From contig BAAIJX010000018.1 in assembly GCA_054600435.1 (NCBI GenBank), forward strand, positions 62,001 through 126,000: DNA of 64,000 bases. The letters run 5' to 3'. A program made the translations under genes and the position numbers. The notes under the pieces were generated by a model, which was not told the DNA's origin, ran no database searches, and saw nothing but the letters and a program-made list of their open reading frames with translations. Origin of the DNA: Neophaeotheca triangularis (lineage: Eukaryota). Below are positions 5,580-56,127 of this stretch, piece by piece; the first letter of the stretch is position 1; each line of letters starts with the position of its first letter.

Positions 5580-6205
5580 GTCGTCGGCGTGGGTTAGGGA
5601 ATACGGTTAGAGGGGATGTATGATAGGAAGAGCAATTGTTCCCATGATCGATATCAAAATAACGACCCCGTTGATAGGATTCCTGCCGAGGTAGTGGTAT
5701 GCGAGCCAAGAACGAGCTCCATTTGAACAGCAGCAGAAGGCATTAGCCAGAGTAGGAAGGCTGGATAAGCCGGCCGTATTTCCCTCTTAGCGGCACCTCC
5801 TAGCAATACCTCTTACCAGTAAGTTAGCTACCTAGGTAGTAGCTCACAAGTGTGAGCATTGCGCTCTTTTACCAACCCGGACGACTCTAGCCGCTGCTGC
5901 CGAGATGTTGTTATTGCAAGTACTAGGAGGTAGTTAACTTATTAGCTACCTCCTACATACAGTATCGGTATGTAGTGGTCCCGACCCCGCCACGGCTCAC
6001 CATGCACGTGCTGCCGCTGGGGTAAATGTCATCTTGTCCGTCATGTGAGCGATGAATACCTAAGTTAAGGTAACTTCCGATCTCTATTTTCCATCGGCCT
6101 TCGCTCGTCCTTTGACCTTCCCGCGCCAACACAACTCCATCACAGCAACATCAACATAGGCCATACAAGCAGTTCGGTTTGCATACCAATACCGACATCG
6201 TCACC

Positions 6206-6967
6206 ATGAAGATCATCCTCGTAGGCGCCACCGGCTTCATCGGCTCCGAGATATTGGAGCAGCTGATTGCCAACCCTTACATCTCTGACATATTTTGCCT
6301 CCTTCGCCATACACTCGCACCGCACTTCCGCAAGTCGCCAAAGGTTCACATGGTCCTGCACGACAATCTCGAAGAGTATCCGATCCACATCATCCAGAAG
6401 CTCAAGAACGGCGGCGCAGAAGGTTGCATCTGGGCGGCGGGCGGACAGGTCCACAAATTCAAGACATTGGAAGAAGCGCGCCAGGTCAACATCAACTACC
6501 CTTTGCAAGCGGCAGAGGCTTTCTCTAAAGAACTCGCTACCGAGCTGGATCCTAACCCCGCGCCGAACACGACCAAATTTCCCTTCCGGTTTGTGTTCAT
6601 CAGCGAGACCAGGGCCGAGCAAGACTCCAACAAAGCGCTGTGGTTCTACGCCGATAGCCGAAAGATCAAGGGTGCTGCCGAGAAGGGACTCTTCGATATT
6701 GCGAACCAGTCGAAAGAGGTGGAGGTTTCCGAAGGGAACTACAAGCGCTGTTTCGATGTGATAGCTTTGCGGCCCGGTGCTGTGATTCCAAAGGGAGAAG
6801 CATTGTCCAAGTACTTTGCCGAAGCGACAAGTACCTCTTGTGCCGTGGATCGCGTTGCGAAGTTGGCGATTCGCAGCGCCATGCAAGGTGCGGGCGAGAA
6901 GAAGATACTGGAGAACGCGGACATCCTTGGGAAAGAATGGATGCAGATCAACTCTTTGAACATATGA
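6206..6967 (+). CDS. NAD(P)-binding Rossmann-fold protein (atypical SDR/epimerase-like)
   Basis: ATG 6206 gives MKIILVGATGFIGSEIL (GxxGxxG), followed by PFRFVFIS, KIKGAAE and ALRPGAV. Confidence 0.85.
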   Translation: MKIILVGATGFIGSEILEQLIANPYISDIFCLLRHTLAPHFRKSPKVHMVLHDNLEEYPIHIIQKLKNGGAEGCIWAAGGQVHKFKTLEEARQVNINYPLQAAEAFSKELATELDPNPAPNTTKFPFRFVFISETRAEQDSNKALWFYADSRKIKGAAEKGLFDIANQSKEVEVSEGNYKRCFDVIALRPGAVIPKGEALSKYFAEATSTSCAVDRVAKLAIRSAMQGAGEKKILENADILGKEWMQINSLNI

Positions 6968-7751: not shown

Positions 7752-8554
7752 TCAAAATCCAGGCTCCCAGTCGCTCACGTCGCTGTCGTCACTGATAGAC
7801 CCCGAAGCCCTCATGGAACGCTTCCCCTTCCCACGGACAGTCTTATCAGCGGCCGAAATGTTGGCGGACAAGAACGGGTTGTTGTTCAGTCCCAGCTCGC
7901 GACCGTTCAGGCGAGCAGTGAAGTCCATGGGGCCAGCGATACCGAAGGAGTCTGTGGCACCATCGATGCGAAGACCGAAATCCTCGCAGGCTCCATTGGT
8001 ACCCTGGCTGACCACAGGCTCGTCGAAGTCCTCGTCGTCCTCGCTGTCTGCGCCGTCCTTGTAGATCTTGCCGGCCGGCTTGCTGGAGCGGGCGAGAGAG
8101 CGACGAGGGCCTACGCTTTCAAGCTTGATCGAATTGGCATCCACGTCTATCTCGGACTCCTCGTCGTCGTCTTCGTTACGGCTGGGGCGCTTGGTTTTGC
8201 TTGGGGTGGCGGCCTTGAAGCGCTTCTCGCTGGTAGGTGCTGTGGATGGAAGAGCGCGCTTGCGAGAGGCAGGAGTCGCCTTCGAAGGTGTGGCTCCCTT
8301 GCCTGCACCACCAGCTTGGCTGCGCAGCTTGCCGATGTGCTCGGTGATGGCACGCGCTGTGGGCAGATCCCCGCCGTCGGTTCCTGAAGACTTCGTGAGC
8401 TTCATTGAAACGCTTGCAAGAATGAATCCGCAGGTCTTCATTTACCGTACTTCTCCGCCCATTTGCGCGCCAGTTCATCTTTGTCGTAGGAGACGCTGTC
8501 GATGATGAGGAGTAGAAGACGCTGGTCGTTGGCGGCGTCCCATTTCACAGGCAT
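7752..8554 (-). CDS. Small Myb/SANT-like domain protein A (~246 aa), basic then acidic low-complexity tail
   Basis: Exon 1 (8554-8446) MPVKWDAANDQRLLLLIIDSVSYDKDELARKWAEKY. Intron 8445-8384 (GTAAAT...CTCAC...CAG). Exon 2 continues in the 7752 ORF with PTARAITEHIGKLR. Confidence 0.8.
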
Positions 8555-9525
8555 GTTGACTCTGGTTGGAGTGCTTCACTTGTTGATCAGCTTCTGGTAT
8601 TGAGTATATGAAGAGGCTTGGATCTTAACTAACGTGCAATAGCGAAGTGACGTGTTTGGTTGACGTCGAGCGAAGGAGAATAGCAAGTTCCCTGAAGGCG
8701 AACACTTGCTGGATCGTCTTACTTCTCCAAGTCGCTCTGAGAGGAGGAAGGCAGGTTGTTGGGCCCGAAAGCGCAAGTGAAGTAGAAGACGCGGGATCGA
8801 ACCACGTGGACGTCTGCAGAAACGCCCGGCTGGGCGTCATAATCTCCATGGAAACCAAAGGGGCTACTGTATATGATAACACTCGACACCAGGAGAGTTG
8901 CATCCGTGGTACTATCATATCACTGTAACTCCAAGTTGCTCACATGCATGCACTCGACACCTGCAGGACCACTGGGACGTGACTCACGCGATACATCAAA
9001 AGTGCTTGCAGCTGCTTCTGCTGTGTCACCGGCACCTCGAGCCGGCTGCATGTTCCCTGGCCAACCTTGTATCAACGTCACTGGCGCTATCCTATCTATG
9101 CATCTTTGGCGAATCGAGAGCCTGGTCCGTCTCGCAAGGAGGAGAGCAATCAAGGCTTTCAGACCTTACCTGCAACGCTAAGGTCCACCACGGTGGAAGC
9201 AAGCAGCGCATCGTGAGCAGACGGCTTTCGTATAGCTGCCGTGCAGTATCTAGCATCCACTGTTCCGAAGAAGAACGTTAGGATGAACTCTTAGACTATA
9301 GGCGACTGTGTCGATGCATTTGCGACAACATATCGTTCCCGGTCAAGGTCTGCGCAAAGATGCCATAAAGGAGTCAATACTTTCAAGCCATTGCTTGCTT
9401 CAATACCTACAATGATACACGAGAAAGACGCCGTTGTCATCAGACCTGCCCATCATGAGACTGTCATCGCTACCGTAGTCCTTTGATATCCTCCGCAGGA
9501 GCCAGAGCCAGACCACGCAGCCCCT

Positions 9526-10127
9526 TCAACCGTAAGCGGGCCAGGTGTTGTCCCCCATGCCCTCTTCACTTTCCATACCCAAGCTGTTCAGGCTCCCCGT
9601 GACACTGCCAACCCCGAAGTCGAGCGATGGAATACCGTGGGCGAAGGCATTGACATCCTCGAACTCGGCAGCCTCCTTCTTGATAGCGCTGCCTTTCTTC
9701 GCAGAAGCCTTTGCGACTCTTCCGTTGGCGACGGCTGGAGAGGTAAATGGTCAGCTGGTCACTAGACTGTGTGTATCGCGGGGGAAACGGCACTTACACG
9801 CGAGAGGATCCTTCTTCGGCGTCTTTGGCTTCCTTGGGGTGGAAGGGGCGGATTTTTTCCTGATAGGGGAGATTTCACCGCGCTGGCCAGAGTCCACCTC
9901 CTCCTTGAGCTCCTCGCCCAGCTTCTTGATGCCGCGGAACTTGTTCTCGAGGGTGTTGTAGGTGGTTCCGTAGTATTGGGCAACCAATTTGAGGTTGGGC
10001 TGCGACGTGACTTAGTGGGTGATAAAAGCCATGGGTACTCAGAAGGGGAACTCACTTTGGCGCCGGATGCGTAGATGGCGGCGATCAGGCGTTGCCAGGT
10101 TTCCGTGGCTTCCCAATCCATAGGCAT
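9526..10127 (-). CDS. Small Myb/SANT-like domain protein B (~160 aa), 3 exons
   Basis: MPMDWEATETWQRLIAAIYASGAK | PNLKLVAQYYGTTYNTLENKFRGIKK...TPRKPKTPKK | SVANGRVAK...AYG*. Introns 10055-10000 (GTGAGT...CTAAG...CAG) and 9797-9735 (GTAAGT...CTGAC...CAG) keep the frame. Confidence 0.8.
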
Positions 10128-10947
10128 GTTGATCTCGAGATTGTTCGTAGGAGGGTTTGGTCGAAGTTTTTAGTGTGGTATGTCGAGGTTTTAGTAGATG
10201 AGTTTGCCTGTGTTGTTGTCGGATGGAAGCCGGTATTGATGAGTGAAGGGTTGGGGGAGGAGAGGGATATGTCTGGAAAAGATGCCGAGAATGTTTATTC
10301 GATACAGAGGCTGAGAGTGTCAAGTGAGAAGGTTGGGTTGGTGCCTGTTGCTATGCTACGCAGCATAGTGTCGAGCGCTTCGAGCTGGTACGTTGCAGGC
10401 CGTCAAAAATCTGTAGAAACCACCTCTCCGTCACCAATACATGCACGCGTTACGATACAGACCACAAGCGCAACAACGAAGGGAACTCAAGACCTCTCTA
10501 CAGTCGGGTCTCTCCTCTCATTGGCTTCCACTCGATCCAATGCTACGGGTGAAAACAAACGGCGAATGCCCCTCTTGAGCGCTGGACCGTGACAGGTCGA
10601 CACGCGTCCGATGCAAGCGCTCTACGCGAGCGCTCAGAGTCATACTCTCTTGTTGCACAATGCACGCCGAGTAGGCGACGAAGCGCAGTCAAAGTGATAT
10701 ATCGAATGTCGTCCCTTGGGATCTGCAGCTGCCAGGGCCTCATGCATAGAGCTAAACCCGATTGGGATGGGAGATCATATAGCAGGAACGGTTTCACTTG
10801 ACAATACTTCTCACGACTGGTGTACCTAGATACTAGTTGGTGGTGCTGTTGGCCCGGAGAAGGCAGTTTGAAGAATGCTACCCTGTTGTCTCCCCAGCTA
10901 TGCTGCGTTGTCGGCTGCGGTGAACCTGCGTCCCGACAAGCATCCCC

Positions 10948-11399
10948 TTAGTCCTGCTCGCCATCCTCACCCTCCTCCTTGACATCCTTGATCGGGGCAG
11001 CGGCAGCGCTCTTGCTGGGGCTCTCCTCCACGTCGTCCATGTCGGCTTCCTCGACCTTGCGTTTCTTCGCTGCCGGCTTCTTGGTGGTGGATTTGGGAGT
11101 CTTGGCCTTGCTCTTGGTGGGAGACTTGTTTGGGGTGTCTCCGCCTGCAGCAGTGCCGGCATCGCCATACTGAGCCTTGACCTCCTTCTGCAACTTTTGG
11201 AAATGCTGACTGTGAAGCATGTCAGCGGTTGATAGCTAGTGAAGTGGATGAGCGATGCTTACCGAACGGATTCCTTTGTGTAGGCATCTCCCATCATGGT
11301 GGCCACAGTGCTCCAGTCAGGGCGAGGCGCATCCGTGAGGTGGATGATGGCCATGAGGAGCTGGCGGTCTTTCTCGTCGTTCCACTTTTCGCCGGCCAT
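10948..11399 (-). CDS. Small Myb/SANT-like domain protein C (~132 aa)
   Basis: Exon 1 (11399-11263) MAGEKWNDEKDRQLLMAIIHLTDAPRPDWSTVATMMGDAYTKESVR. Intron 11262-11210 (GTAAGC...CTGAC...CAG). Exon 2 QHFQKLQKE...AKKRK...EQD*. Confidence 0.85.
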
Positions 11400-11756
11400 G
11401 TTGGATGTTAACCTTTTTCGTGTAGAAGGGTTCGGTCCGAGTGTGAAGTTGATCGGTTGTGTGGTTTTTGTAGGATTGGTAGGATCGAGTTATCGCCGGA
11501 GTAAAGCAGACTTTAATCAGCAAACATGTGAGACAACAAGTCAGAAAGGGTTGAGCAAGTGTAAAGCAGGCATTGATTGAGTTTACTCACTTCGCACACC
11601 TAGCCATTACGACACATTGAAGCTTGGACGTGCTCCCAAAACGCATGCGACATCTTGGCAGTGGTTGTCAGGGAGGCAATGCTGCATGCAGTCGCATCTA
11701 GTGCGCCCACTGTTGGCATTCGCCTTCTGGTAACAGCCAGCCCTCACTATGCGGTC

Positions 11757-12207
11757 CTAATCCTGCTCCTCGTCGTCTGCCGCCTTCTTCTCCTTGCCCT
11801 TCTTGGTCTTTTTGGTAGCTTTGATCGCCGGCTCAACGTCTCCCTCCGCATCCTCATCATCGCCAGGCTGCTTGCGCTTGCGGCCTTTGCCCTTGCCCTT
11901 GCCGCCTTTGGCGGGGCCCTTGGTGGTCTCCTCGGTCGCCGCGGCGGTGCTGGCTCCAGTGGCTCCGTCTCCCACCTCCTTGCGCAGTTTCTTGAGGTAG
12001 CGTTGCCTATTTTGGAGATACACGATCAGGATGAGTAATTAATTAGTAGTGAAGAGAAGTATGGACTTACGAGACACTTGAGTGTGAGTATTCAGTACCC
12101 ATGCGCTTGGCAGCCTCTTGGTAGTGGGCCGTGGTGAGCTTCACACCGCATACATCGAGAAGGTGAAGCAGGAGAGCTCTATCGGTTTCGGCTGTCCAGT
12201 TGACCAT
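11757..12207 (-). CDS. Small Myb/SANT-like domain protein D (~128 aa)
   Basis: Exon 1 (12207-12071) MVNWTAETDRALLLHLLDVCGVKLTTAHYQEAAKRMGTEYSHSSVS. Intron 12070-12007 (GTAAGT...TAG). Exon 2 QRYLKKLRKE...GRKRK...EQD*. Confidence 0.85.
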
Positions 12208-12660: not shown

Positions 12661-14112
12661 CTATCCGCCGTTCTGCTTCCCATCCTTCTCCTTGGGGTAC
12701 TCTTCACGATAACCAGCCGCTCGATTTGCCCTTGATCTTTTGGCAGACTTCTGAGGCGTGCTTCCCACCCGTCGAGCGCACAGCTTCTCATACAGTTTAC
12801 CTGGCACCCTCAGCGGCACCACAACAATCGAACAGACCATTTGGAACGGCCACGCGACCAGTTCGGTTGCCGTACCCATCACGTTCGACAAGACACCCCG
12901 CCTTTGGCTCGACTGTGCAGCAACGGCGGCTAGCGACAGAGCATCTTGAAGTCGGGATTCCAGGTTCTGCAGACGCTGCTCGGTAAGCATCACCATCGTC
13001 GTCGATCGTTTCTCGTAGCGTCGCACCGCGCGCTCCAGCCCATCGAGCCGAGGTTCGTACCGTTTTCGTACCTCAGCTGAAAGGTCGGATAGCTCGGCCT
13101 TTTGTGCAACAGTGGCGCCCGCAGGAGCGGCAGTGTAGTCCGCGACCTTTGCTTCCAAGCCTGCCAGTTTCGCATTCAAGTCTGCTACCAATTCATCGGA
13201 AAGTTGAGCAGCAGGTTGGGAGTCTACACCAGATGCTACGCGCTGGAGATGTAGTGTGCGTGCGGAGACAAGTTTTACAAGCTGCCTCACCGGGCGAAAG
13301 AGGGCGGCCAGCAGAAAGATGGTGAGATTGTAATCGGAGACGAGGGTAGACGGGCCGCGCGACAGTTGAGATCTTAGCAGATGTAAGCCGTACGCGGCTA
13401 TCATGGGCATGATGAAAGTTGCTGCGAACGCGAGTCTCTCCCGACCACGCAACTCTGCTGCTGCCTCTTCCCGAGCTTGCTTGTCTTCTGCCCCTGTGAT
13501 ATTGTCTTTCTCGCTTTCGGTTGCCGACACCTCCTCGTAAGAAGACCCAGCAGTGTCCAACGCAGCATCATCTTCATCCAACCTTTCGGGTATGATATCG
13601 CGGCTTGTTCTCTTTCTGGGTCGAGCATCTTTTCTGATAGCTTGCGCTGCATAGTACCAATCCCATGGTAGCCTCACGCTCCAGTTCAGGAAGACTGCCG
13701 CTAGACCCAAGAGTAGCACATCGGTGACGAAAGCCGAACCATTGTTGAAGATCAGCCCTCCGACCGCTGGCAGAACGGCAAAGATCAAAGGCGAAGAATG
13801 CCAATGTGTGGGTTCGGAGAGGTCGTCGATGGATGCAGACCGCGCGGGACCTGAGCCCGGGTTCAGGACATCGCCTGCAAACGAGTGGGTGGCATCGTCA
13901 AGGCTGGAGAAGGAGAGAATAGACGATCGACGGCGTCCGAGACTAGGGACACGCTCTTGACTGGTTCTCGGAGACGTGTCCTGTGGGTTCCTGTTGGATT
14001 GCCGGGACGACAAGCGGTGCCTGAACTGCGGCCGGTTTTGGTGCGATGCAGATGTTGAGCTGGCAGCTCTTCCCGTCGTCGTCGGCGGGGGCTCTGCATC
14101 AGCAATCTCCAT
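12661..14112 (-). CDS. Uncharacterised fungal membrane protein with C-terminal coiled coil
   Basis: 483-aa intronless ORF with hydrophobic segments (HWHSSPLIFAVLPAVGGLIF, VLLLGLAAVFLNWSVRLPWDWY, YNLTIFLLAALFRP) and a heptad-like region LDGLERAVRRYEKR...RLQNLESRLQD. Confidence 0.8.
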   Translation of the reverse strand: MEIADAEPPPTTTGRAASSTSASHQNRPQFRHRLSSRQSNRNPQDTSPRTSQERVPSLGRRRSSILSFSSLDDATHSFAGDVLNPGSGPARSASIDDLSEPTHWHSSPLIFAVLPAVGGLIFNNGSAFVTDVLLLGLAAVFLNWSVRLPWDWYYAAQAIRKDARPRKRTSRDIIPERLDEDDAALDTAGSSYEEVSATESEKDNITGAEDKQAREEAAAELRGRERLAFAATFIMPMIAAYGLHLLRSQLSRGPSTLVSDYNLTIFLLAALFRPVRQLVKLVSARTLHLQRVASGVDSQPAAQLSDELVADLNAKLAGLEAKVADYTAAPAGATVAQKAELSDLSAEVRKRYEPRLDGLERAVRRYEKRSTTMVMLTEQRLQNLESRLQDALSLAAVAAQSSQRRGVLSNVMGTATELVAWPFQMVCSIVVVPLRVPGKLYEKLCARRVGSTPQKSAKRSRANRAAGYREEYPKEKDGKQNGG

Positions 14113-15073
14113 GATTCAGAAGCTGTGGTAAGGGTGGTGATAGGGGCAGAGGAATTACTATATCAAAGGACGTCGGCGGTCTTTGGTTGACCAATGTAGC
14201 TACCTGCTACATCATCTCCACGGTTGAGGAAGAAGGTTCGGTCCTTAGCAAACAATCGGCGCGAAGGCAATCGCTTCCAACTCGTAATTCGCTCGATATT
14301 CCCCTCGTTCCCGGTACTATGTAGGCGTGATGCTGCTTGATGGAGCAGCGCAGTCGTTAGAAAAGTAACGCGAACGAACGACGTGACGTCTCGATAAAAA
14401 GTGGGGCCGAGCCGAGCACGCATCTGGAGCGTGTGCAGCTGCACGATATGTTTCTCACGCCTTTGTACGCTACTTGGAGTCTACTTGAGGCGGTCGGTTC
14501 CTGCAAGTGAAGTACATGTGGCATCGACAGGGAGGTACACTCTCATTTTAACATTGGCGACTTGCAGCACGCATCAAAGGTCGTGTGCCCGCTGCCTGAG
14601 GCATGTCGTGGAAGAGGGTATCGTTTCGTCAAACTCTGTCTAAGGTAGACTACAAAAGAAAAAAGAACAATGCAATACGCTAAATGCAACGGACATTTTT
14701 CTTTAAATCACCGCCCCGACCACCGCTCGCTAGCTCGTCCCCATCGCCGTACCCTGGAAATTGAAAACCGAAAGCTGAAACCGTTATGAGCCGAGAAGAA
14801 AGTACAGCCGTGGTCGTTCGTGGCTACGCATGCTGTTCCTTAGGCCGCTTGTGCAGACCTGCCGCCCAACGCAATGGCTTCACGCGCTTGCGCAGCGACT
14901 AACCCTTGCTGTCGAGCAGTTCGAAAGGCGGAAACATGTACAAAGCCGATGGAAATGGCCAGAGTCGTGAGCTACCGGACGTTCATTGTAAATCCACAAA
15001 GTCGAAGAGGAGAAGAGCAAAATCCGAGAAAAGAGCTCCCTGGTCCTCGTGACGCGATCAAGTGCTTCTGCCA

Positions 15074-16525
15074 TTACGAATGCCGTCGTTTCCGTTTCGT
15101 CTTTTTCATCGCCCTGCCGCTTGGACTCACGCCTTCCGAGTGGCTAGGCGCAGTTTCGTCAGAACCTCTGCGGTCAGCGTCGTCGTCGCCATCATCACTT
15201 TCGTCAGCGGGGCTGCTTGATCGGTCCCTGGCAGCCCTACTCTTGCCCTTCCTCGCTTCAGAACCCTTTTTAACCCCAACATTGAGTCCCTGCCGCCGCA
15301 GAGCTTTCAAGAGGGCGCTCGAGGCACGCATGCCGGGAAAGTCTTTCGCTGTATACACAGAAAAACAATCTGTCACAATCGAAGCGACTGAGCCGTGGAC
15401 AGTGCCTGGTTCAATATTCGTGGGATCGACGCGCAGCAGCTTGAAGCGCAGTCTATATTTGCCTACTTGCCTGCAGCTAAGATCGGGGAACACGAAGAAA
15501 GTCCCCGCGGTATTCTTCTCATCTTTGGCCTGATACGGTGATGCGACCAACGTGCCCATTAGCCTTCGGGTCGTCTGATGGCCTGGCTGCTCCGGTTGGG
15601 TTTCAGTCTCGTCTTTCATGTCCGGGCTCAGAAGCGTGCAATGGAGAGCCAGCATGGCATTGAGGTCCTGTTCTGGCCTGCCAGTATTCTTGTCCGTTAT
15701 TTTGAGCTCGAGAATTGGTGGAGGGTCAATGACGCGACGATCCCGCTCGCCATAACCACACGCTCTGGCCGCCATGGGCTGTTGTCTTATGCTAAGCTCG
15801 TAATTGTATGGCGGAGGCTGGCTTATGCGTGGCTGCCGTGGAGCCTGCAAGGCGCTCATTGGGGCGACCGAGCTTCGGGGCGAAGGCTCGCTGTAAACAT
15901 CATAGTGGCTAGCGGTAGATGAGTAGGAGGTCGGTGCTGGGCTGAAGTGCGCTCGGTCGCCGTACTCGGCGTTTGTGGATGGGTAGCTCGAATAAGCATG
16001 CGCAGGCCGAGGATCATTCGGATGGTGCGGCTGCAGAGACCGTATAGCCGCTCCAGTATGACCGTGGGATAGGAAGGCTGTGTTAGTTGGCGCGGACTGC
16101 CTTGACGATTGCGGAGCTGTCCGGACGCCAGCTGGAGATATTCCGTACGTAGTCGTCTCTTGATGACGACTCTGTTGTGTTGGTGGTCTCTGGTGTGACC
16201 TTTGAGGCGATTGTGGAGCAGCAGACAGCAATTGAGATATCGGCAGCGACCCGCTTGTGCGAGTCCTAGAAGATGGGGTCGTTGCTTCAGACGTTCTCAT
16301 GGGTGGAAGCTGCATTGGAGGTAGCGCGCCCCTACTGAAATGGGCCTGCTGGCCAGAAGACAAACTTTGAAGAGGCGGCAGCTGAGGTCCAGGCTCAGGG
16401 TGGATAATTGTCCTGGTAGAGCCATGGGAAGTTGGAAAAGACGGCGGTCTGTGTACTTGAGCCATTGCGCCGGCAGCGGTGGCGAAGTGTGGTTGGATAG
16501 GCGAGGGAGGGTTCGACCTAGACAT
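15074..16525 (-). CDS. velC: Velvet-domain regulator, VelC-like architecture
   Basis: YELSIRQQPMAARACGYGERDRRVIDPPPILEL, FFVFPDLSCR, FSVYTAKDFPGMRASSALLKALRRQG. The velvet domain is C-terminal, after a long P/S-rich disordered region, as in VelC. The subtype call is less certain than the family. Confidence 0.85.
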   Translation of the reverse strand: MSRSNPPSPIQPHFATAAGAMAQVHRPPSFPTSHGSTRTIIHPEPGPQLPPLQSLSSGQQAHFSRGALPPMQLPPMRTSEATTPSSRTRTSGSLPISQLLSAAPQSPQRSHQRPPTQQSRHQETTTYGISPAGVRTAPQSSRQSAPTNTAFLSHGHTGAAIRSLQPHHPNDPRPAHAYSSYPSTNAEYGDRAHFSPAPTSYSSTASHYDVYSEPSPRSSVAPMSALQAPRQPRISQPPPYNYELSIRQQPMAARACGYGERDRRVIDPPPILELKITDKNTGRPEQDLNAMLALHCTLLSPDMKDETETQPEQPGHQTTRRLMGTLVASPYQAKDEKNTAGTFFVFPDLSCRQVGKYRLRFKLLRVDPTNIEPGTVHGSVASIVTDCFSVYTAKDFPGMRASSALLKALRRQGLNVGVKKGSEARKGKSRAARDRSSSPADESDDGDDDADRRGSDETAPSHSEGVSPSGRAMKKTKRKRRHS

Positions 16526-19500
16526 CAGTCACACTGCCCGTCGTCAAAATTCCGGGTAGACCGCATCCACTGTGACACCGTAACAACCAAAGCCCAGTCG
16601 CGAAGGAAAGTCCGACAAGCGTGATAGACTGTATTCTAGGAGGCGCGCAGTGGCGCGCTGATCTTTGGTGCGTTCCAAAGAATCTGGGATCTGAAGTCGC
16701 AGACCCAAGTGTCCCTGATCTGAAGGTGTATCCTCCTGATACCTTGGAACGACACACCAGAATGCGTAAGTGACGACCGGCTCCAGGGGCTTCGGCGTGA
16801 GGGCTAGTCGACCGTGGGTGCGCTCCGTGGAATGCAATGACGGCGAGTGCTGGTGCTCGGTGAGTGATGAGAAAGCTGGGATTACGGGCTGAACAGCAGG
16901 TTGATTAGGCCAGTTGAAAGCAAGGTTGGAATAAGGCGGTCAAACAAAAAGCCAGGGCGGTCGGACGAGAGGCAGTAGTTGTAGTAGTTGTAGTAGTAGT
17001 GGTGATGATGGTATAGGCGCACATGGGGCACTGGGCGGCACAAGAGACGCGAGAAGGCGGCAACGATGCTTGCTAGATAACCATCTTTCGCGGAGACGGA
17101 GAGACAAGCAGGGGGCGCTCAAGGATGGGTGAGGTTCAAAAGGAGGAGTGAAAGCCGGTCGTAGGAGGTTTCGTAGGGGGCAGAGTAATAGTAGTGCAGG
17201 ACGAATAATGGCAAGGATTACGGACCCATGCACGAACAGCAAGTAGCGGCACTGGGGGTTGTAGAGACTAGAGTTAGACTGGAGGCCGTGGTAACTTGAG
17301 GTCACTTTAGGTAGGTGGGTAGTGTGGAGAGGAGGCACGGAAGACCTTTCGTCTTTTGCCTGCCCACAGACGGCGCTAGGCCGGCAGGATGAGTTGATGG
17401 AAACGTAGACCTGCAGCTTTTGCGCTCGTCGGCGCAGGTGAAATGCCCTGTTTCTCGGTAGCGAATAAAAACGTCTTGCAGGTTCGGCAAGCCGCAGGGC
17501 GACGGAATCGTCACTATTAGGTACCTAGGTAGGTAGGTAAAGTAGGAGAAGTCATGGTAGGTAGGTAGTAGTGGCATAGGTGGCAGTACCAAGCAGTACC
17601 ATGTACTAGCTATGTACCTACTATATACTGCTTGGGTAGTCCCTAGCAGGTACAGGTACAAACTCTACATTTAGTGTGCATAGTTTGACTTAGGGTATCT
17701 TTGCCAACACCCGACGATACCTACCTATACCTACCTACCTACAGTAGAACTTTGCCCGCGGTATGCTACAGACGAGTGGAGCCATACGGCAACGGTAGGA
17801 GGTAGAACGTGGGCCATCCATCAGTACCACGTCCCCTCGGTACTATACTGATATACCTACCTTGCAAAACTAGCAAGCTACTACTACTACTACTCCCGCC
17901 GACTTTAGATTGGCTTGCATATCACCCCCTTCGCTCCTATGAAAGAGTGACCGGGAAACAGGGATCCGAGTCAGCCACCTCGTGACAAGTCTGCGCACCA
18001 CAGGTGGCACATGTGTGACCGTATACAGAGCTGAACGGGATGCAGAGCACTACTCATGCATCTACGCGAGCACGTAGCCGCTACCGTGGCTGCTATCTCG
18101 CAAGAACCCGGTTGATGGGGTGAAGAGGTGACCTGGCCATTCCAAGGTTATTGGTATTGGGCAATAATGATGATGCCGCGGAATGTCCACCTCTATCTAC
18201 CTGTACTTTGCCCTAACCACCAGCCGGTCAAGTGGTAACTCGATGATATTATTACCCGACAGCCTCGACACCAGGTTTGCCAGGATCTTCCCACCCCCCA
18301 TTTCGGAACAGACATGGACAGACATACCGACACCGAGGTTAATCACCGAGACAATCGCCGGAGGTGTCACGCAACGGGAAACACCGGTTGCAAATGCAAG
18401 CGCCCAAAATCAATTTCTCGACCCTTGCAATCATAATGCCTGCCCTGCGGAGGTACAGGAGCCTACCGAACGCACCAGCATGCACGACTACGACTGCGTC
18501 GCTAATTGCCCGTGCCACCGAATTTATGGGACCGTTCCTACCTATACCACGCGACAAACAAGGGTAACCGACTGACCGGCCTTTAGCGGCAACAGCTTGT
18601 ACAGCTTGAGCCTTGAACCCACTTTGCCCACCACTACTACTCAGTATAAGTCGCAATAGCGGTATACTGTCTAGTACCAAAGTCCTGATCTGCCTCTTAA
18701 CACTGTGTTTATCACAGTCTCTACTACTTGTGTACACCTAGTATGCTTTAGGGCAATGAATTATCGGATATAGGTACCTTGTAGAAACGCGTTGGGTTGA
18801 CGAAAACTAATCGTCGCTCAAAGACCACTGTATGATCTAAGCCTCGAATGCGACCGAGCCTGGCTTTTCTTTTCTTTTTCTAACCGAACGCTCCCTCAGT
18901 CAATCTTACCGACAGTTGCCTTACCATTTAAAGTAATGCTTTACGGCCAATTGAACCAGGCCAGGCATATAGATGGGTACTCAACACCCACCTGGGTAGT
19001 GATAGGAGGTGTAGTACCTTGGCATACCTCTTCCGATTCGACTAGGGAACATGGGTGTTAGCGCCTGATGCCAAGCTTTGAAACAGAATCCCGGGTTTTG
19101 GGGTCGCAGTAGTCACGGACACACGGATGTATAAATTGGCCAGCCACAGCCGCGACTACCGTCAGTCTTACCCGGAAGCAGGAAAGGTCCTAAGGTTCGA
19201 CGAGTAACTAGTACGACCGGAGGCCAGATTCTTTCAAGACCGCTAGCCACTCAGAGGATAGACATTTTGGGGATAGTGGCACGACTGGTCTTCAGGAAGT
19301 CATCTAGGCGGTCTGCAGCCAACGAACCGGAGAAGACAGCTACGCTGCCTCCATTAGCCGGCGGCTAATATTCAAAGCCATTGTCATCGATCAATCGCTT
19401 GCTTTACGGTACAGTGGATGCGCGTAAGGGCGTCGATTCGTTTAGCAAGCAATACAGTACTTCACCGACTTGGTGTGGAAGACACAAGATGGCCCTCCCT

Positions 19501-25263: not shown

Positions 25264-25654
25264 GAAGGAAAGTGAGATAAGGGGTCGAGTGATAGTACAT
25301 TAATGTCAATTAATGTCAACACCAACGTTGAACTGAATCATGTTGTCCTTCACGCCCTCTAACGTGCAATCTTCATTGCAGTTGTACTCCTTGAGAAGAT
25401 GGATCGATGTTCAAGCCTGCTAGACCACCTCAAACTCTAGGTGTTCGTCTGCTTGTGTACCTAGCATCACACTCGTAAACCCACCTTCCCTTGTGCATGC
25501 ACTCAAGTTCTCTCACGTGACTCCGCGTTCTCTACGTCATACTTAACCCTCGACGACCGTGGGCACCTGCAGTCTCGGGCTTCCGCATAGTTACGGTTGA
25601 ACAGACATCATGCTGACAGCACGTGAAGCAACTTGATCCATCTCTAGAATCACC

Positions 25655-26785: not shown

Positions 26786-27676
26786 GCGTCTCGCCTGCCA
26801 TTTATGATACCCATTGCAAAATGCTTAACGATGCTTGTGAGAGACTACTCTGAACATGAGTCTTGATCCGAAATTTCAATCCTTTCTACAGATAGATTGT
26901 GGATAGACAGATCGATGCGAGTTTTTTGGGCGCAACGATCGCAGTTTCAGGGTAATCGACCTGCCTAGGAATGGACGATAGACGTGGTGAAAGTACTTTC
27001 GGCAACAACATTGATGAAGTGATGCTACTGTCCACTTAGGTGACCTGTCTTAAGGTTCCAAGGTTGTCTTGAAGACGTCTTACCTACCTTACCTAGTACC
27101 TTAACCTAGGAACCGGGCTCCTTCCTTAGGTTCCTTATCCGGCGAGGTGGGGTCTTCGTCATTTGTTCCTGCAAGCACTCTACGCGTCTGTGTACGACTG
27201 AGGTGGGCGGTATTAATGCCTAGCAGGCAGACTCCTCCTCGGCACATGTCAGGAACTTGAGTAGGTACGTTGGAGCTCCTTGACAGATTTTGACAGTCTC
27301 TTCCTTTATCTGAATCGTCAAAAACCACCGACGAGGTCGAGAGTCCGCCTGACACTGTATCTCAGTGACGGGACGTGTGGGAAAACAAGTCGGGTGCGGC
27401 GACGCGTAAGATTGGCGCAGTGGCGATTGATTGCGGAGGCGCGTGGCGACTTATCGATTCGGCGACAGAAGACTGACAGAAGATTGACCCCTGCCAGGCT
27501 AGAGGCTGCCTTTGCCTTTGGCCCTTTGCCTCCACGATCGTGTCCGATTAGATCTGACTAGTAGTCACTGCTAGCGACTTGTCGCCAAAGGTACTGTACT
27601 GTACTGTACTCTACCTACCTTCTACTTTACTTTTGCATCCGGCACGCTCCCCAGACCATTTACCACAAGAATTAAA

Positions 27677-54170: not shown

Positions 54171-55793
54171 CTATTGAGCGTAGGTAGAGCTTGCGACTTC
54201 AGGGCGATACATCTGGCCAGTCGTGCCGTAGCCATGGTAGCCCTGCGGAGCCTGTTGCGTCGAGTAGCTTGAACCACTGCTGATACCCAGACCGTTCATG
54301 TCGCGAGGCTGGTTGGACGAGTTGGATGTGCCGGCGACTGCGTAAGACCCACCTCGGTATGGCATCTGATTCGAGTACGCTGGTGCGTAAGGCTCGTGGC
54401 TCTGCGGGCCAGCCATCGTCGCCGACCTAGGACTCTTGGCGGCTGGATGTGGTGATTGCGTCCCGATAGGCGCACTGTGCATGCCATAGCCTTGAGCCGG
54501 AGACCGCACAGCGTAGGCCTGGTTGGAAAGGGCCTGGGGAGCTTGCGGCTGGCTGTAGAGGGACTGGCTTCGGCCGTCGGCGGGTGGGCTGGCGACACCA
54601 CTGCCACTGTAAGGGGTGCGATTGCCCTGTCCGCCAATGGTGCCGAAACTCGATGAGCTGGACTGGACGGGCGTTTGGTAGGAAGATTGAACCATTGAGG
54701 GTGTTTCGTTGCCTCTGCCGTGAATGGCGGAGTAAGACGATGCGTACTGGTTGCCGTACGAATGCCCCGCGGGTGGCCCGCTCTGCTCTTCAGCCTTTAC
54801 CGGAGGCGGCGCTTGTCCAGGTGCCTTGTAGTAGTTGGAATAGCTTGGTGGCGCATAGGCGGGTTGGCTGCCGTACGCAATGGGCCCACTTGAAGTAGAG
54901 TGTGCTGGCCAGGAAGTTCCAGTCATACCGCCATACAGGTTGGGAGCCGAAGAAGCCATGCTATACATCGCAGGCTGGTATTGTGGCTGACCGAAGTATT
55001 GTCCAGGTCTCACGCCATACCCACTTGGTGCCATGGTGGAATACATCATTTGGGGATGGGCGTGCATGTTGCCATCAATTGCGTAGTGCTCAGTCTCCTC
55101 GACAGGCGCGCGAAAGTTCTGCTTGAGATACAATTCTGGGCGCACCATGATATTTTGTAGACGCGGGTCGGAGGCTGGTCTCGGGAGCAGATTGTTCTTG
55201 ACATCGTCCACCTTGTAGTAGGATACCATGTGGTGAGAAATGCCGTTGACTGAGATGCTCATTGTTTTCTTCACCAGTCCGTCAGGTCGGAAGCCGTAGC
55301 TATCGACGAGGCTGCCTATCAAAGACCGCTCGAGCTCCTTGTCCTGGTCCGTGTTTGATGCTTCGTTCTTCACACCCTCCTCTACGTTGGGGGACGGCGG
55401 AGTAAGAGGTGCTGCAGCTTCTACGCGCTCGTTTTCGTTGGAATCTTGTCGTGGATACGGCTCACCGGGGATGCTGGCCCGTTTGCGTTTCATTGCACGC
55501 TTCTTTTCTCCCGGGGGAAAAGGCTTTTCAAGCTCTCTGTAGATCAGAAAGTTGCCCAGGATTCGACTCGGGCTCCAGGCAACACCGTCGGTCCAGCGCT
55601 TGATTCCGGATGCGTTCTCCTCATAGATGAAGATGCTGCCGCTTTTGATGAGCTGACTGCGCTCCCGATCGTGCGGTCTACGGGGCACATGATGCAGCTT
55701 GCCACTGAGACATGCTTCGAACAGCACCAGGCCGTCCATGCTGTTGTGAACGAAGCCATGGAAGGTTGGGACCAGAGGCCCCGCTCCTGTCAT
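54171..55793 (-). CDS. WOR1: Gti1/Pac2 (WOPR) transcription factor, Wor1/Ryp1/Sge1 type
   Basis: PTFHGFV, RRPHDRER, GIKRWTDG..WSPSRILGNFLIYREL, PPGEKKRA, DSYGFRPDGLVKKTMS, HHMVSYY, then a Y/P/S/Q-rich tail. Confidence 0.93.
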   Translation of the reverse strand: MTGAGPLVPTFHGFVHNSMDGLVLFEACLSGKLHHVPRRPHDRERSQLIKSGSIFIYEENASGIKRWTDGVAWSPSRILGNFLIYRELEKPFPPGEKKRAMKRKRASIPGEPYPRQDSNENERVEAAAPLTPPSPNVEEGVKNEASNTDQDKELERSLIGSLVDSYGFRPDGLVKKTMSISVNGISHHMVSYYKVDDVKNNLLPRPASDPRLQNIMVRPELYLKQNFRAPVEETEHYAIDGNMHAHPQMMYSTMAPSGYGVRPGQYFGQPQYQPAMYSMASSAPNLYGGMTGTSWPAHSTSSGPIAYGSQPAYAPPSYSNYYKAPGQAPPPVKAEEQSGPPAGHSYGNQYASSYSAIHGRGNETPSMVQSSYQTPVQSSSSSFGTIGGQGNRTPYSGSGVASPPADGRSQSLYSQPQAPQALSNQAYAVRSPAQGYGMHSAPIGTQSPHPAAKSPRSATMAGPQSHEPYAPAYSNQMPYRGGSYAVAGTSNSSNQPRDMNGLGISSGSSYSTQQAPQGYHGYGTTGQMYRPEVASSTYAQ

Positions 55794-56127
55794 GGTCGCC
55801 GGATTTGGAAGAAGCGCGCAGGTCTAGGAATGCGCGCGTTGATTCGCGTGCGCAACGGAGGACAGGAGTGAGGTGGCGCGGGTTATCCGAGTGAAAAATG
55901 AATTGCCGCGATTACTGACTGACTGTCGTGAGGTGGACTCTCTACGTGAGGAAGCGGTGAAAGGAGACGTCACTGGACGTTGGTGAATTGCTTAGAATGA
56001 AAAGGCGGGACGCTGTCGGCAGGTTCTTTCGAATGCTCGTATGCTGACCTCAAGGTAAGGTATTGGTATTGAAACAATGGCAACAGCGAGTAAGATTGAC
56101 CTCCGCGGTAATGTTTCTGTTTTTGTA

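Follow-up and report, generated by a model that had tools for sequence, protein, structure and literature searches.

The 64,000-nucleotide stretch of contig BAAIJX010000018.1 analysed here (the window) comes from Neophaeotheca triangularis, a salt-tolerant black mould of the Dothideomycetes. It contains four spliced minus-strand genes at positions 7752-12207, named A to D from left to right. All four are co-oriented, and each encodes one predicted Myb/homeodomain-like three-helix domain followed by a disordered basic/acidic tail. Judged from sequence, the array is a set of old tandem paralogues. The ascomycete family to which they belong is large, consists of Myb-like proteins with a single repeat and is allied to PF22980. 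The DNA upstream of the genes points to A and B, and not to all four, as a putative co-regulated pair. An element found before both genes also stands before two repair genes of the window, of the XPA/Rad14 and the Rad5/Rad16 families. We tentatively propose that A-D are chromatin-binding proteins regulated by cyclin-dependent kinase (CDK) and that repair genes and the pair A and B are induced jointly; this is the likeliest of the readings considered, but we hold it with less than even confidence.

The array and its family

The first-pass annotation described a hidden array of four minus-strand genes sharing one architecture. All four genes are present, and the motifs quoted for them lie at the places given. 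The array is hidden from the open reading frame (ORF) track, but B, C and D are annotated by NCBI as hypothetical proteins, and the kind of domain is already known. The splice models of B, C and D are letter-identical to the Neophaeotheca triangularis models returned by protein searches (Table 1), and among the returned sequences there is no spliced NCBI model for A. The junction in A is supported because orthologues have an intron at nt 106-113 and an intron-less orthologue (L008/P0019) is continuous across it. All introns of A-D are GT-AG and 53-64 nt long. An ORF artefact is ruled out for the four genes by the NCBI models, the orthologues and the matches to the family hidden Markov model (HMM).

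The copies are homologous at the protein level. The N-terminal pairwise scores of the six pairs were matched by 0, 0, 0, 1, 8 and 15 of 2000 shuffles, and alignment of subfamily profiles results in HH probabilities of 99.2% (B against C-like) and 96.2% (A against B). The family HMM finds exactly genes A-D in the window, and the reversed-sequence controls give no match of at least 8 bits. As the annotation had stated, no DNA similarity is found between the copies (best blastn piece 26 nt, E 0.019). A recent duplication was rejected on the grounds that the copies lack such similarity.

A profile of 15 sequences retrieves 714 clusters (50% identity) at E<=0.001. The members examined are the 150 listed, two of which were judged off-target. 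Among the matches listed, the named members belong to the Dothideo-, Eurotio-, Leotio-, Lecanoro- and Pezizomycetes and to Saitoella; therefore, the family spans the Ascomycota. A quick tree was made of 121 domains, with P0040 and P0105 left out as off-target and P0001-P0004 replaced by the window's own models. B groups with Morchella and lichen fungi at a support of 98, A and C belong to less well supported groups, and D has no clear position. Because Morchella falls within the B subtype, the duplication is old, in agreement with the annotation, and the subtypes are very old.

At E<=0.01, 26 of the 68 C-like members match PF22980 and 15 of the 68 match Myb_DNA-binding. The relative P0271 also carries PF22980. 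A B-related subfamily in the Leotiomycetes (P0051, P0055, P0064, P0236, P0248, P0260) contains 4-7 tandem half-repeats of helix 2-3, and two Rutstroemia members of this subfamily are labelled 'polarity defective-2'. P0018 from Zymoseptoria brevis is an A-type protein with an internally duplicated domain.

Fold and class of the domain

Predicted folds cover B and C. The AlphaFold model of B has helices at residues 8-21, 27-34 and 38-60 with a disordered tail, and the AlphaFold2 (AF2) model of C has three helices with a predicted local distance difference test (pLDDT) score of 80. The B model superposes on DNA-bound homeodomains with a root-mean-square deviation (rmsd) of ~2.7 A over ~51 columns (E >=0.89; Z 5-5.6). 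For C, Foldseek ranks c-Myb first (E 0.52). Fold searches with the B and C models give no match at E<=0.001, and sequence searches of the PDB give nothing below E 0.09.

The third helix has a net charge of at least +2 in 114 of the 121 domains and of 0 or less in none; in A-D the charge is +2 to +4. SANT domains are marked by an acidic surface without a basic DNA-contact helix, and helix-3 segments that are neutral or acidic were found in 0/121 domains. The Trp slots read W-W-F in C, W-Y-Y in D, W-L-F in B and W-x-I in A. After the Trp-anchored helix 1, the aromatic/hydrophobic slots are spaced ~19-24 and 17-27 apart. Myb repeats have three regularly spaced Trp, which aromatic residues may replace; the strict pattern W-W-W occurs in 0/121 domains and only the first Trp is invariant. 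Of the Trp-anchored Myb/SANT/homeodomain-like bundle that had been suggested, the three helices (predicted in B and C) and the basic helix 3 are borne out. The sequences and models point to a Myb/homeodomain-like three-helix domain with a basic third helix in A-D, for which DNA binding is predicted.

Several known systems resemble the array in part. PF22980 (Myb_DNA-bind_8) is like A-D in size and in its N-terminal three-helix pattern. Relatives of A-D are labelled 'Myb-like domain-containing' and 'AT hook motif' hypothetical proteins, and in the ESM Atlas B and C lie near ascomycete clusters rich in PF22980 (0.79-0.89), at lead level only. However, A-D lie under the gathering score of this family, and the A and B subtypes barely match its model. 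The canonical Myb repeat (PF00249; c-Myb R2/R3, telobox Myb) shares the Trp-anchored helix 1, the slot spacing and the basic helix 3, but A-D have a single repeat without three Trp, and the C model superposes poorly. The nearest PDB sequences are the Ada2 domains of the SANT class (Ada2, Swi3, N-CoR), although A-D are small stand-alone proteins and their helix 3 is basic instead of acidic. The linker histones H1 and Hho1 combine a small folded domain with a Lys-rich S/T-P-x-K tail, as the array proteins do, which is a functional analogy. Unlike linker histones, A-D have no winged-helix match, their tails end acidic and their net isoelectric points are 5.2-9.1.

Tails and CDK-type sites

The tails are rich in CDK-type sites, with 193 observed compared to 20.5 expected in 102 family tails and at least one site in 92 of the 102. 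The CDK-type sites claimed for the array are therefore well represented in the family, but D has no S/T-P site at all; full sites number 2 in A, 3 in B, 3 in C and 0 in D. Three motifs in the A-type tail (KR..acidic, RRS..Y-acidic and a C-terminal DSDVSD-aromatic-x-P) are kept in 14, 14 and 17 of 18 members, and the GRV-K motif of the B-type tail is kept in 31 of 38. These counts are descriptive, as the patterns were taken from the same alignments.

Linkage in relatives

A scan with the B alignment returned 23 metagenome loci in 7 relatedness groups. A adjoins B in 13 of the 23 loci; in the remaining 10, the downstream sequence is no longer than 1,216 nt. C is a neighbour in 6/23 loci and is absent from 5 loci that have at least 2.7 kb of upstream DNA. 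D has a linked orthologue in 0/23. B has the opposite orientation to A and C in L001-L003, where A and B face away from one common upstream region. The NCBI model from Cryoendolithus (P0017) fuses B and A and is therefore another instance of B/A adjacency. An NAD-binding epimerase-like gene downstream of A is linked in 8/23 loci; therefore, part of the linkage is ordinary synteny. The named family hits outside the Dothideomycetes include no adjacent pair by locus tag, and the locus tags of the two Sarea family members are far apart.

The conserved unit is A with B, often with C. The maintained cluster of the first-pass annotation is thus borne out for the linkage of A and B and partly for C, but a fixed co-oriented block of four genes is not found.

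Upstream element and repair genes

The pattern TGCA[AGT]GCACT, on either strand and often beside an Mbp1-type CGCG core, is found upstream of A in 12/13 regions, of B in 8/17 and of C or D in 0/6 (window included). It occurs in ~2% of Markov-shuffled promoters. The window has 5 copies compared to 1.26 expected: two before A and one each before B, the XPA/Rad14 gene and the Rad5/Rad16-family gene. With a matrix built from the locus sites alone, the top five window matches are A twice, the Rad16-like gene, XPA and B. A longer 18-bp composite has two window matches (B and the Rad16-like gene), where 0.00 are expected in 100 shuffles, and it is also present in 5 of the 23 loci (L004, L005, L006, L010, L018). 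The upstream evidence thus seems to mark A and B as the co-regulated pair. A degenerate copy of the element lies at 11681-11694, ~280 nt upstream of C (matrix score 11.9, rank 7).

The sequence ACGCGT is found 320-535 nt upstream of B in 10/13 regions, compared to 12% of random windows; further sites upstream of B are at 10602-10607 and 10445-10450. An X-box-like palindrome is also conserved upstream of B (Table 1). Conserved MluI cell-cycle box (MCB) and X-box sites such as these are expected upstream of genes in the MBF/Rfx1 damage/S-phase regulon; the window itself and loci related to one another are among the regions counted. The CGCG core agrees with the motif that PMC2975146 reports for Mbp1, and PMC12520088 describes damage-response transcription in yeast as mediated by Mbp1 and Rfx1.

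The best PDB match of the Rad5/Rad16-family gene, which encodes a SNF2-RING ATPase, is Rad5 (E 5e-46). Since it has no HIRAN match, the gene is probably Rad16. The XPA/Rad14 and Rad16-like genes are adjacent and co-oriented. A second ACGCGT is at 27402, and short CTGTA and CTAC repeats occupy 27551-27620, just before the Rad16-like start codon. A search of the literature by title or abstract found nothing relevant on the PF22980/Myb_DNA-bind_8 family, the array, the upstream element or a link to Rad14/Rad16. The element before A, B and the two repair genes appears to be new, and the 18-bp composite appears so far undescribed.

Stacked first-exon cassettes in relatives

Seven of the 150 listed hits (P0038, P0039, P0047, P0091, P0061, P0160, P0053) contain two or three Met-started segments that correspond to helices 1 and 2 plus the first half of helix 3. 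Each segment stops at the position of the phase-2 intron in C and D. The rest of helix 3 and the tail occur at most once, after the last segment (3/7); the other four records end or enter intron-like sequence first. In two unspliced records, the segments are separated by only 42 and 49 codons, which leaves no room for an intron followed by an ordinary second exon and another promoter. Cassettes of matching type share 70-81% identity (three records), compared to 26% for the spacers (two unspliced records) and 33-40% between cassette types. In one record, the second exon after cassette 'c' has its closest counterparts in second exons that Exophiala models attach to cassette 'b'. The named records are from Exophiala, Endocarpon, Venturia and an assembly labelled Elasticomyces, covering the orders Chaetothyriales and Verrucariales plus Venturia. 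On the simplest reading of these protein records, which are the sole source for them, the cassettes are likely to be alternative first exons on a shared second exon. Stacked cassettes were also noted in P0083 and P0147.

The arrangement recalls the clustered protocadherins and UGT1A, in which variable first exons precede a common exon. The cassette loci of the relatives resemble these systems; the window does not, since C and D each own exon 2. Neither the window nor the DNA upstream of C from six loci shows extra first-exon cassettes above control level. Joining D exon 1 to C exon 2 would be in frame (861 nt) but was rejected as a shared splice: D possesses an exon 2 of its own, and there is no sign of the splice. 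A literature search by title or abstract found no protocadherin-like alternative first exons in fungi.

Proposed mechanism and alternatives

Each protein would be small and, we infer, nuclear, and would use a single helix-turn-helix, whose recognition helix is basic, to dock on DNA or nucleosomal DNA. The Lys-rich S/T-P-x-K/R tail would aid binding, and phosphorylation by CDK would loosen it, as in linker histones. A would add its acidic/aromatic short motifs, which are of a kind that binds histones or repair/transcription factors. Since A and B are adjacent and the element before them also precedes the XPA/Rad14 and Rad16-like genes, joint induction in S phase or after DNA damage is probable. 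A and B would form the functional core and act as chromatin accessory factors, with a presumed role in repair. C and D would be looser members that lack the upstream element.

A number of observations weigh against this reading. Myb family matches at E<=0.05 are found in 0/38 B-type and 1/12 A-type members. The gathering threshold of PF22980 (27 bits) is reached by none of the four proteins: C scores 16.8-19.8 bits, and B, D and the unspliced exons of A have no match. The gathering score of PF00249 (24.4 bits) is also unreached, with 23.4 bits for the C domain, 20.7 for full C and no match for the others. The C model superposes poorly on Myb repeats (rmsd 8-10 A; 9.8 A for c-Myb; best Z 4.0 in a wide search), and the best structural match of B is the N-terminal protein-binding domain of Atg29 (Z 6.5). 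The 23 loci amount to only 7 related groups, and 13 of the loci are in one. The element is missing in L001 and is missing upstream of B in L019/L020. Its pattern was written after the upstream DNA of A and B had been viewed, so the XPA and Rad16-like matches are the only ones out of sample. The element could also be a developmental site instead of a damage site; its TGCA repeats beside a CGCG core may resemble StuA/Efg1-type APSES sites. Finally, PMC3276140 reports no phenotype for the deletion of pod-2 in N. crassa. This gene, which may or may not belong to the family, goes with the label 'polarity defective-2' of a distant multi-repeat relative, and the result weighs against a strong phenotype.

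If the element is the site of a developmental factor that also raises repair genes in resting cells, A and B would be chromatin proteins of a programme such as spore maturation, dormancy or the sexual stage. The linker-histone-like tails speak for it, but the X-box-like palindrome (13/17) and the Mbp1-type core fit damage/S-phase control at least equally, and the other window matches of the element stand only before repair genes, so we consider this explanation unlikely. It is improbable that A-D are functionally unrelated old duplicates which slow local shuffling of Dothideomycete chromosomes keeps close and which inherited their upstream motifs. The A/B split predates the Pezizomycotina classes and is so old that a 10-mer not under selection would have been lost from one promoter or the other, and two unrelated repair genes carry the element too. 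Nevertheless, the unrelated epimerase-like gene is about as often linked, C and D drop out or move, the two Sarea members are distant by locus tag and all loci compared look like close Dothideomycete relatives, all of which such neutral neighbours would explain.

The structural matches raise a different question, which is whether the domains bind protein. As Atg29-N-like or SANT-like interaction modules, the paralogues would form a heteromeric complex. In addition to the Atg29 match of B, C exon 1 matches ATG29_N weakly (E 0.073), Ada2 SANT/Myb domains come closest among PDB sequences (E 0.095-0.64) and the packing of the C model seems open, as though a partner were needed. However, histone-binding SANT domains are acidic, while this family retains a basic recognition helix throughout, and C and D are often unlinked; we therefore give this explanation little credence. 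A and B might also be sequence-specific transcription factors that bind the element themselves and regulate their own and the repair genes. This would account for the conservation of the element before both genes, the subtype-specific invariant residues in the basic helix 3 of B, and the acidic/aromatic C-termini as possible activation domains. The CGCG half of the element already fits Mbp1, and a lone degenerate Myb repeat seldom recognises 10-18 bp by itself, so self-regulation is very unlikely.

CDK-regulated chromatin binding, with A and B co-induced with repair genes, is the reading that we prefer. A broader version of it combines an undescribed ascomycete family of small Myb-like chromatin proteins kept as arrays, the place of A and B beside nucleotide-excision-repair genes in a damage/S-phase regulon through the 18-bp composite, and, in some lineages, a diversification by alternative first exons that are spliced to one common tail exon midway through the recognition helix. 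D and C would then be the resolved two-gene form of a cassette locus. This combination is possible but doubtful.

Features of the window and neighbouring genes

The coordinates are collected in Table 1. The Velvet-domain gene upstream of the array, presumably VelC-like, is unlinked in the loci examined, and the orthologue of the 484-aa gene is linked in L020.

Table 1. Positions of the array genes, upstream sites and neighbouring genes in the window.
Feature	Position	Strand	Remarks
Gene A	8554-8446 + 8383-7752	-	246 aa; splice model; 2 CDK-type sites; three conserved tail motifs
Gene B	10127-10056 + 9999-9798 + 9734-9526	-	160 aa; best-conserved subtype; 3 CDK-type sites; GRV-K tail motif; NCBI MBLNU230_g2115
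Gene C	11399-11263 + 11209-10948	-	132 aa; phase-2 intron position as in D; 3 CDK-type sites; NCBI MBLNU230_g2116
Gene D	12207-12071 + 12006-11757	-	128 aa; phase-2 intron within helix 3; no CDK sites; most divergent member; NCBI MBLNU230_g2117
Two TGCA[AGT]GCACT copies upstream of A	9001-9010, 8945-8954		TCGCGT core near
X-box-like palindrome upstream of B	10347-10359	-	13/17 B upstream regions (window included), 9% background; RFX/Crt1-type
18-bp composite (CGCG core + 2 nt + AGYGCHTGCA)	10612-10629	-	~490 nt before the B ATG
TGCA[AGT]GCACT copy	25494-25503		~150 nt upstream of the XPA/Rad14 gene (Pfam XPA_C, E 1e-26)
18-bp composite	27170-27187		16/18 identical to the B copy; ~490 nt upstream of the Rad5/Rad16-family SNF2-RING ATPase gene
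NAD-binding epimerase-like gene	6116-6967	+	Conserved downstream neighbour of A; Pfam
484-aa gene	12661-14115	-	Directly upstream of D; no Pfam hit; membrane segments and coiled coil predicted by eye
Velvet-domain gene	15074-16528	-	C-terminal domain; long Pro-rich N-terminus; ~3 kb upstream of D
Gti1/Pac2 (WOPR) family regulator gene	54171-55823	-	Ordinary

Significance

The family comprises hundreds of fungal proteins, predicted to be nuclear and with several per genome, for which the searched literature gives no function. The upstream element is the first testable hint at what they do, and it bears on how black fungi survive extreme ultraviolet radiation. It is also a candidate regulator site for the excision-repair genes of fungi. 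If the stacked first exons of the relatives are indeed alternative promoters on one tail exon, they would be a rare example from fungi of a DNA-binding domain that is diversified combinatorially.

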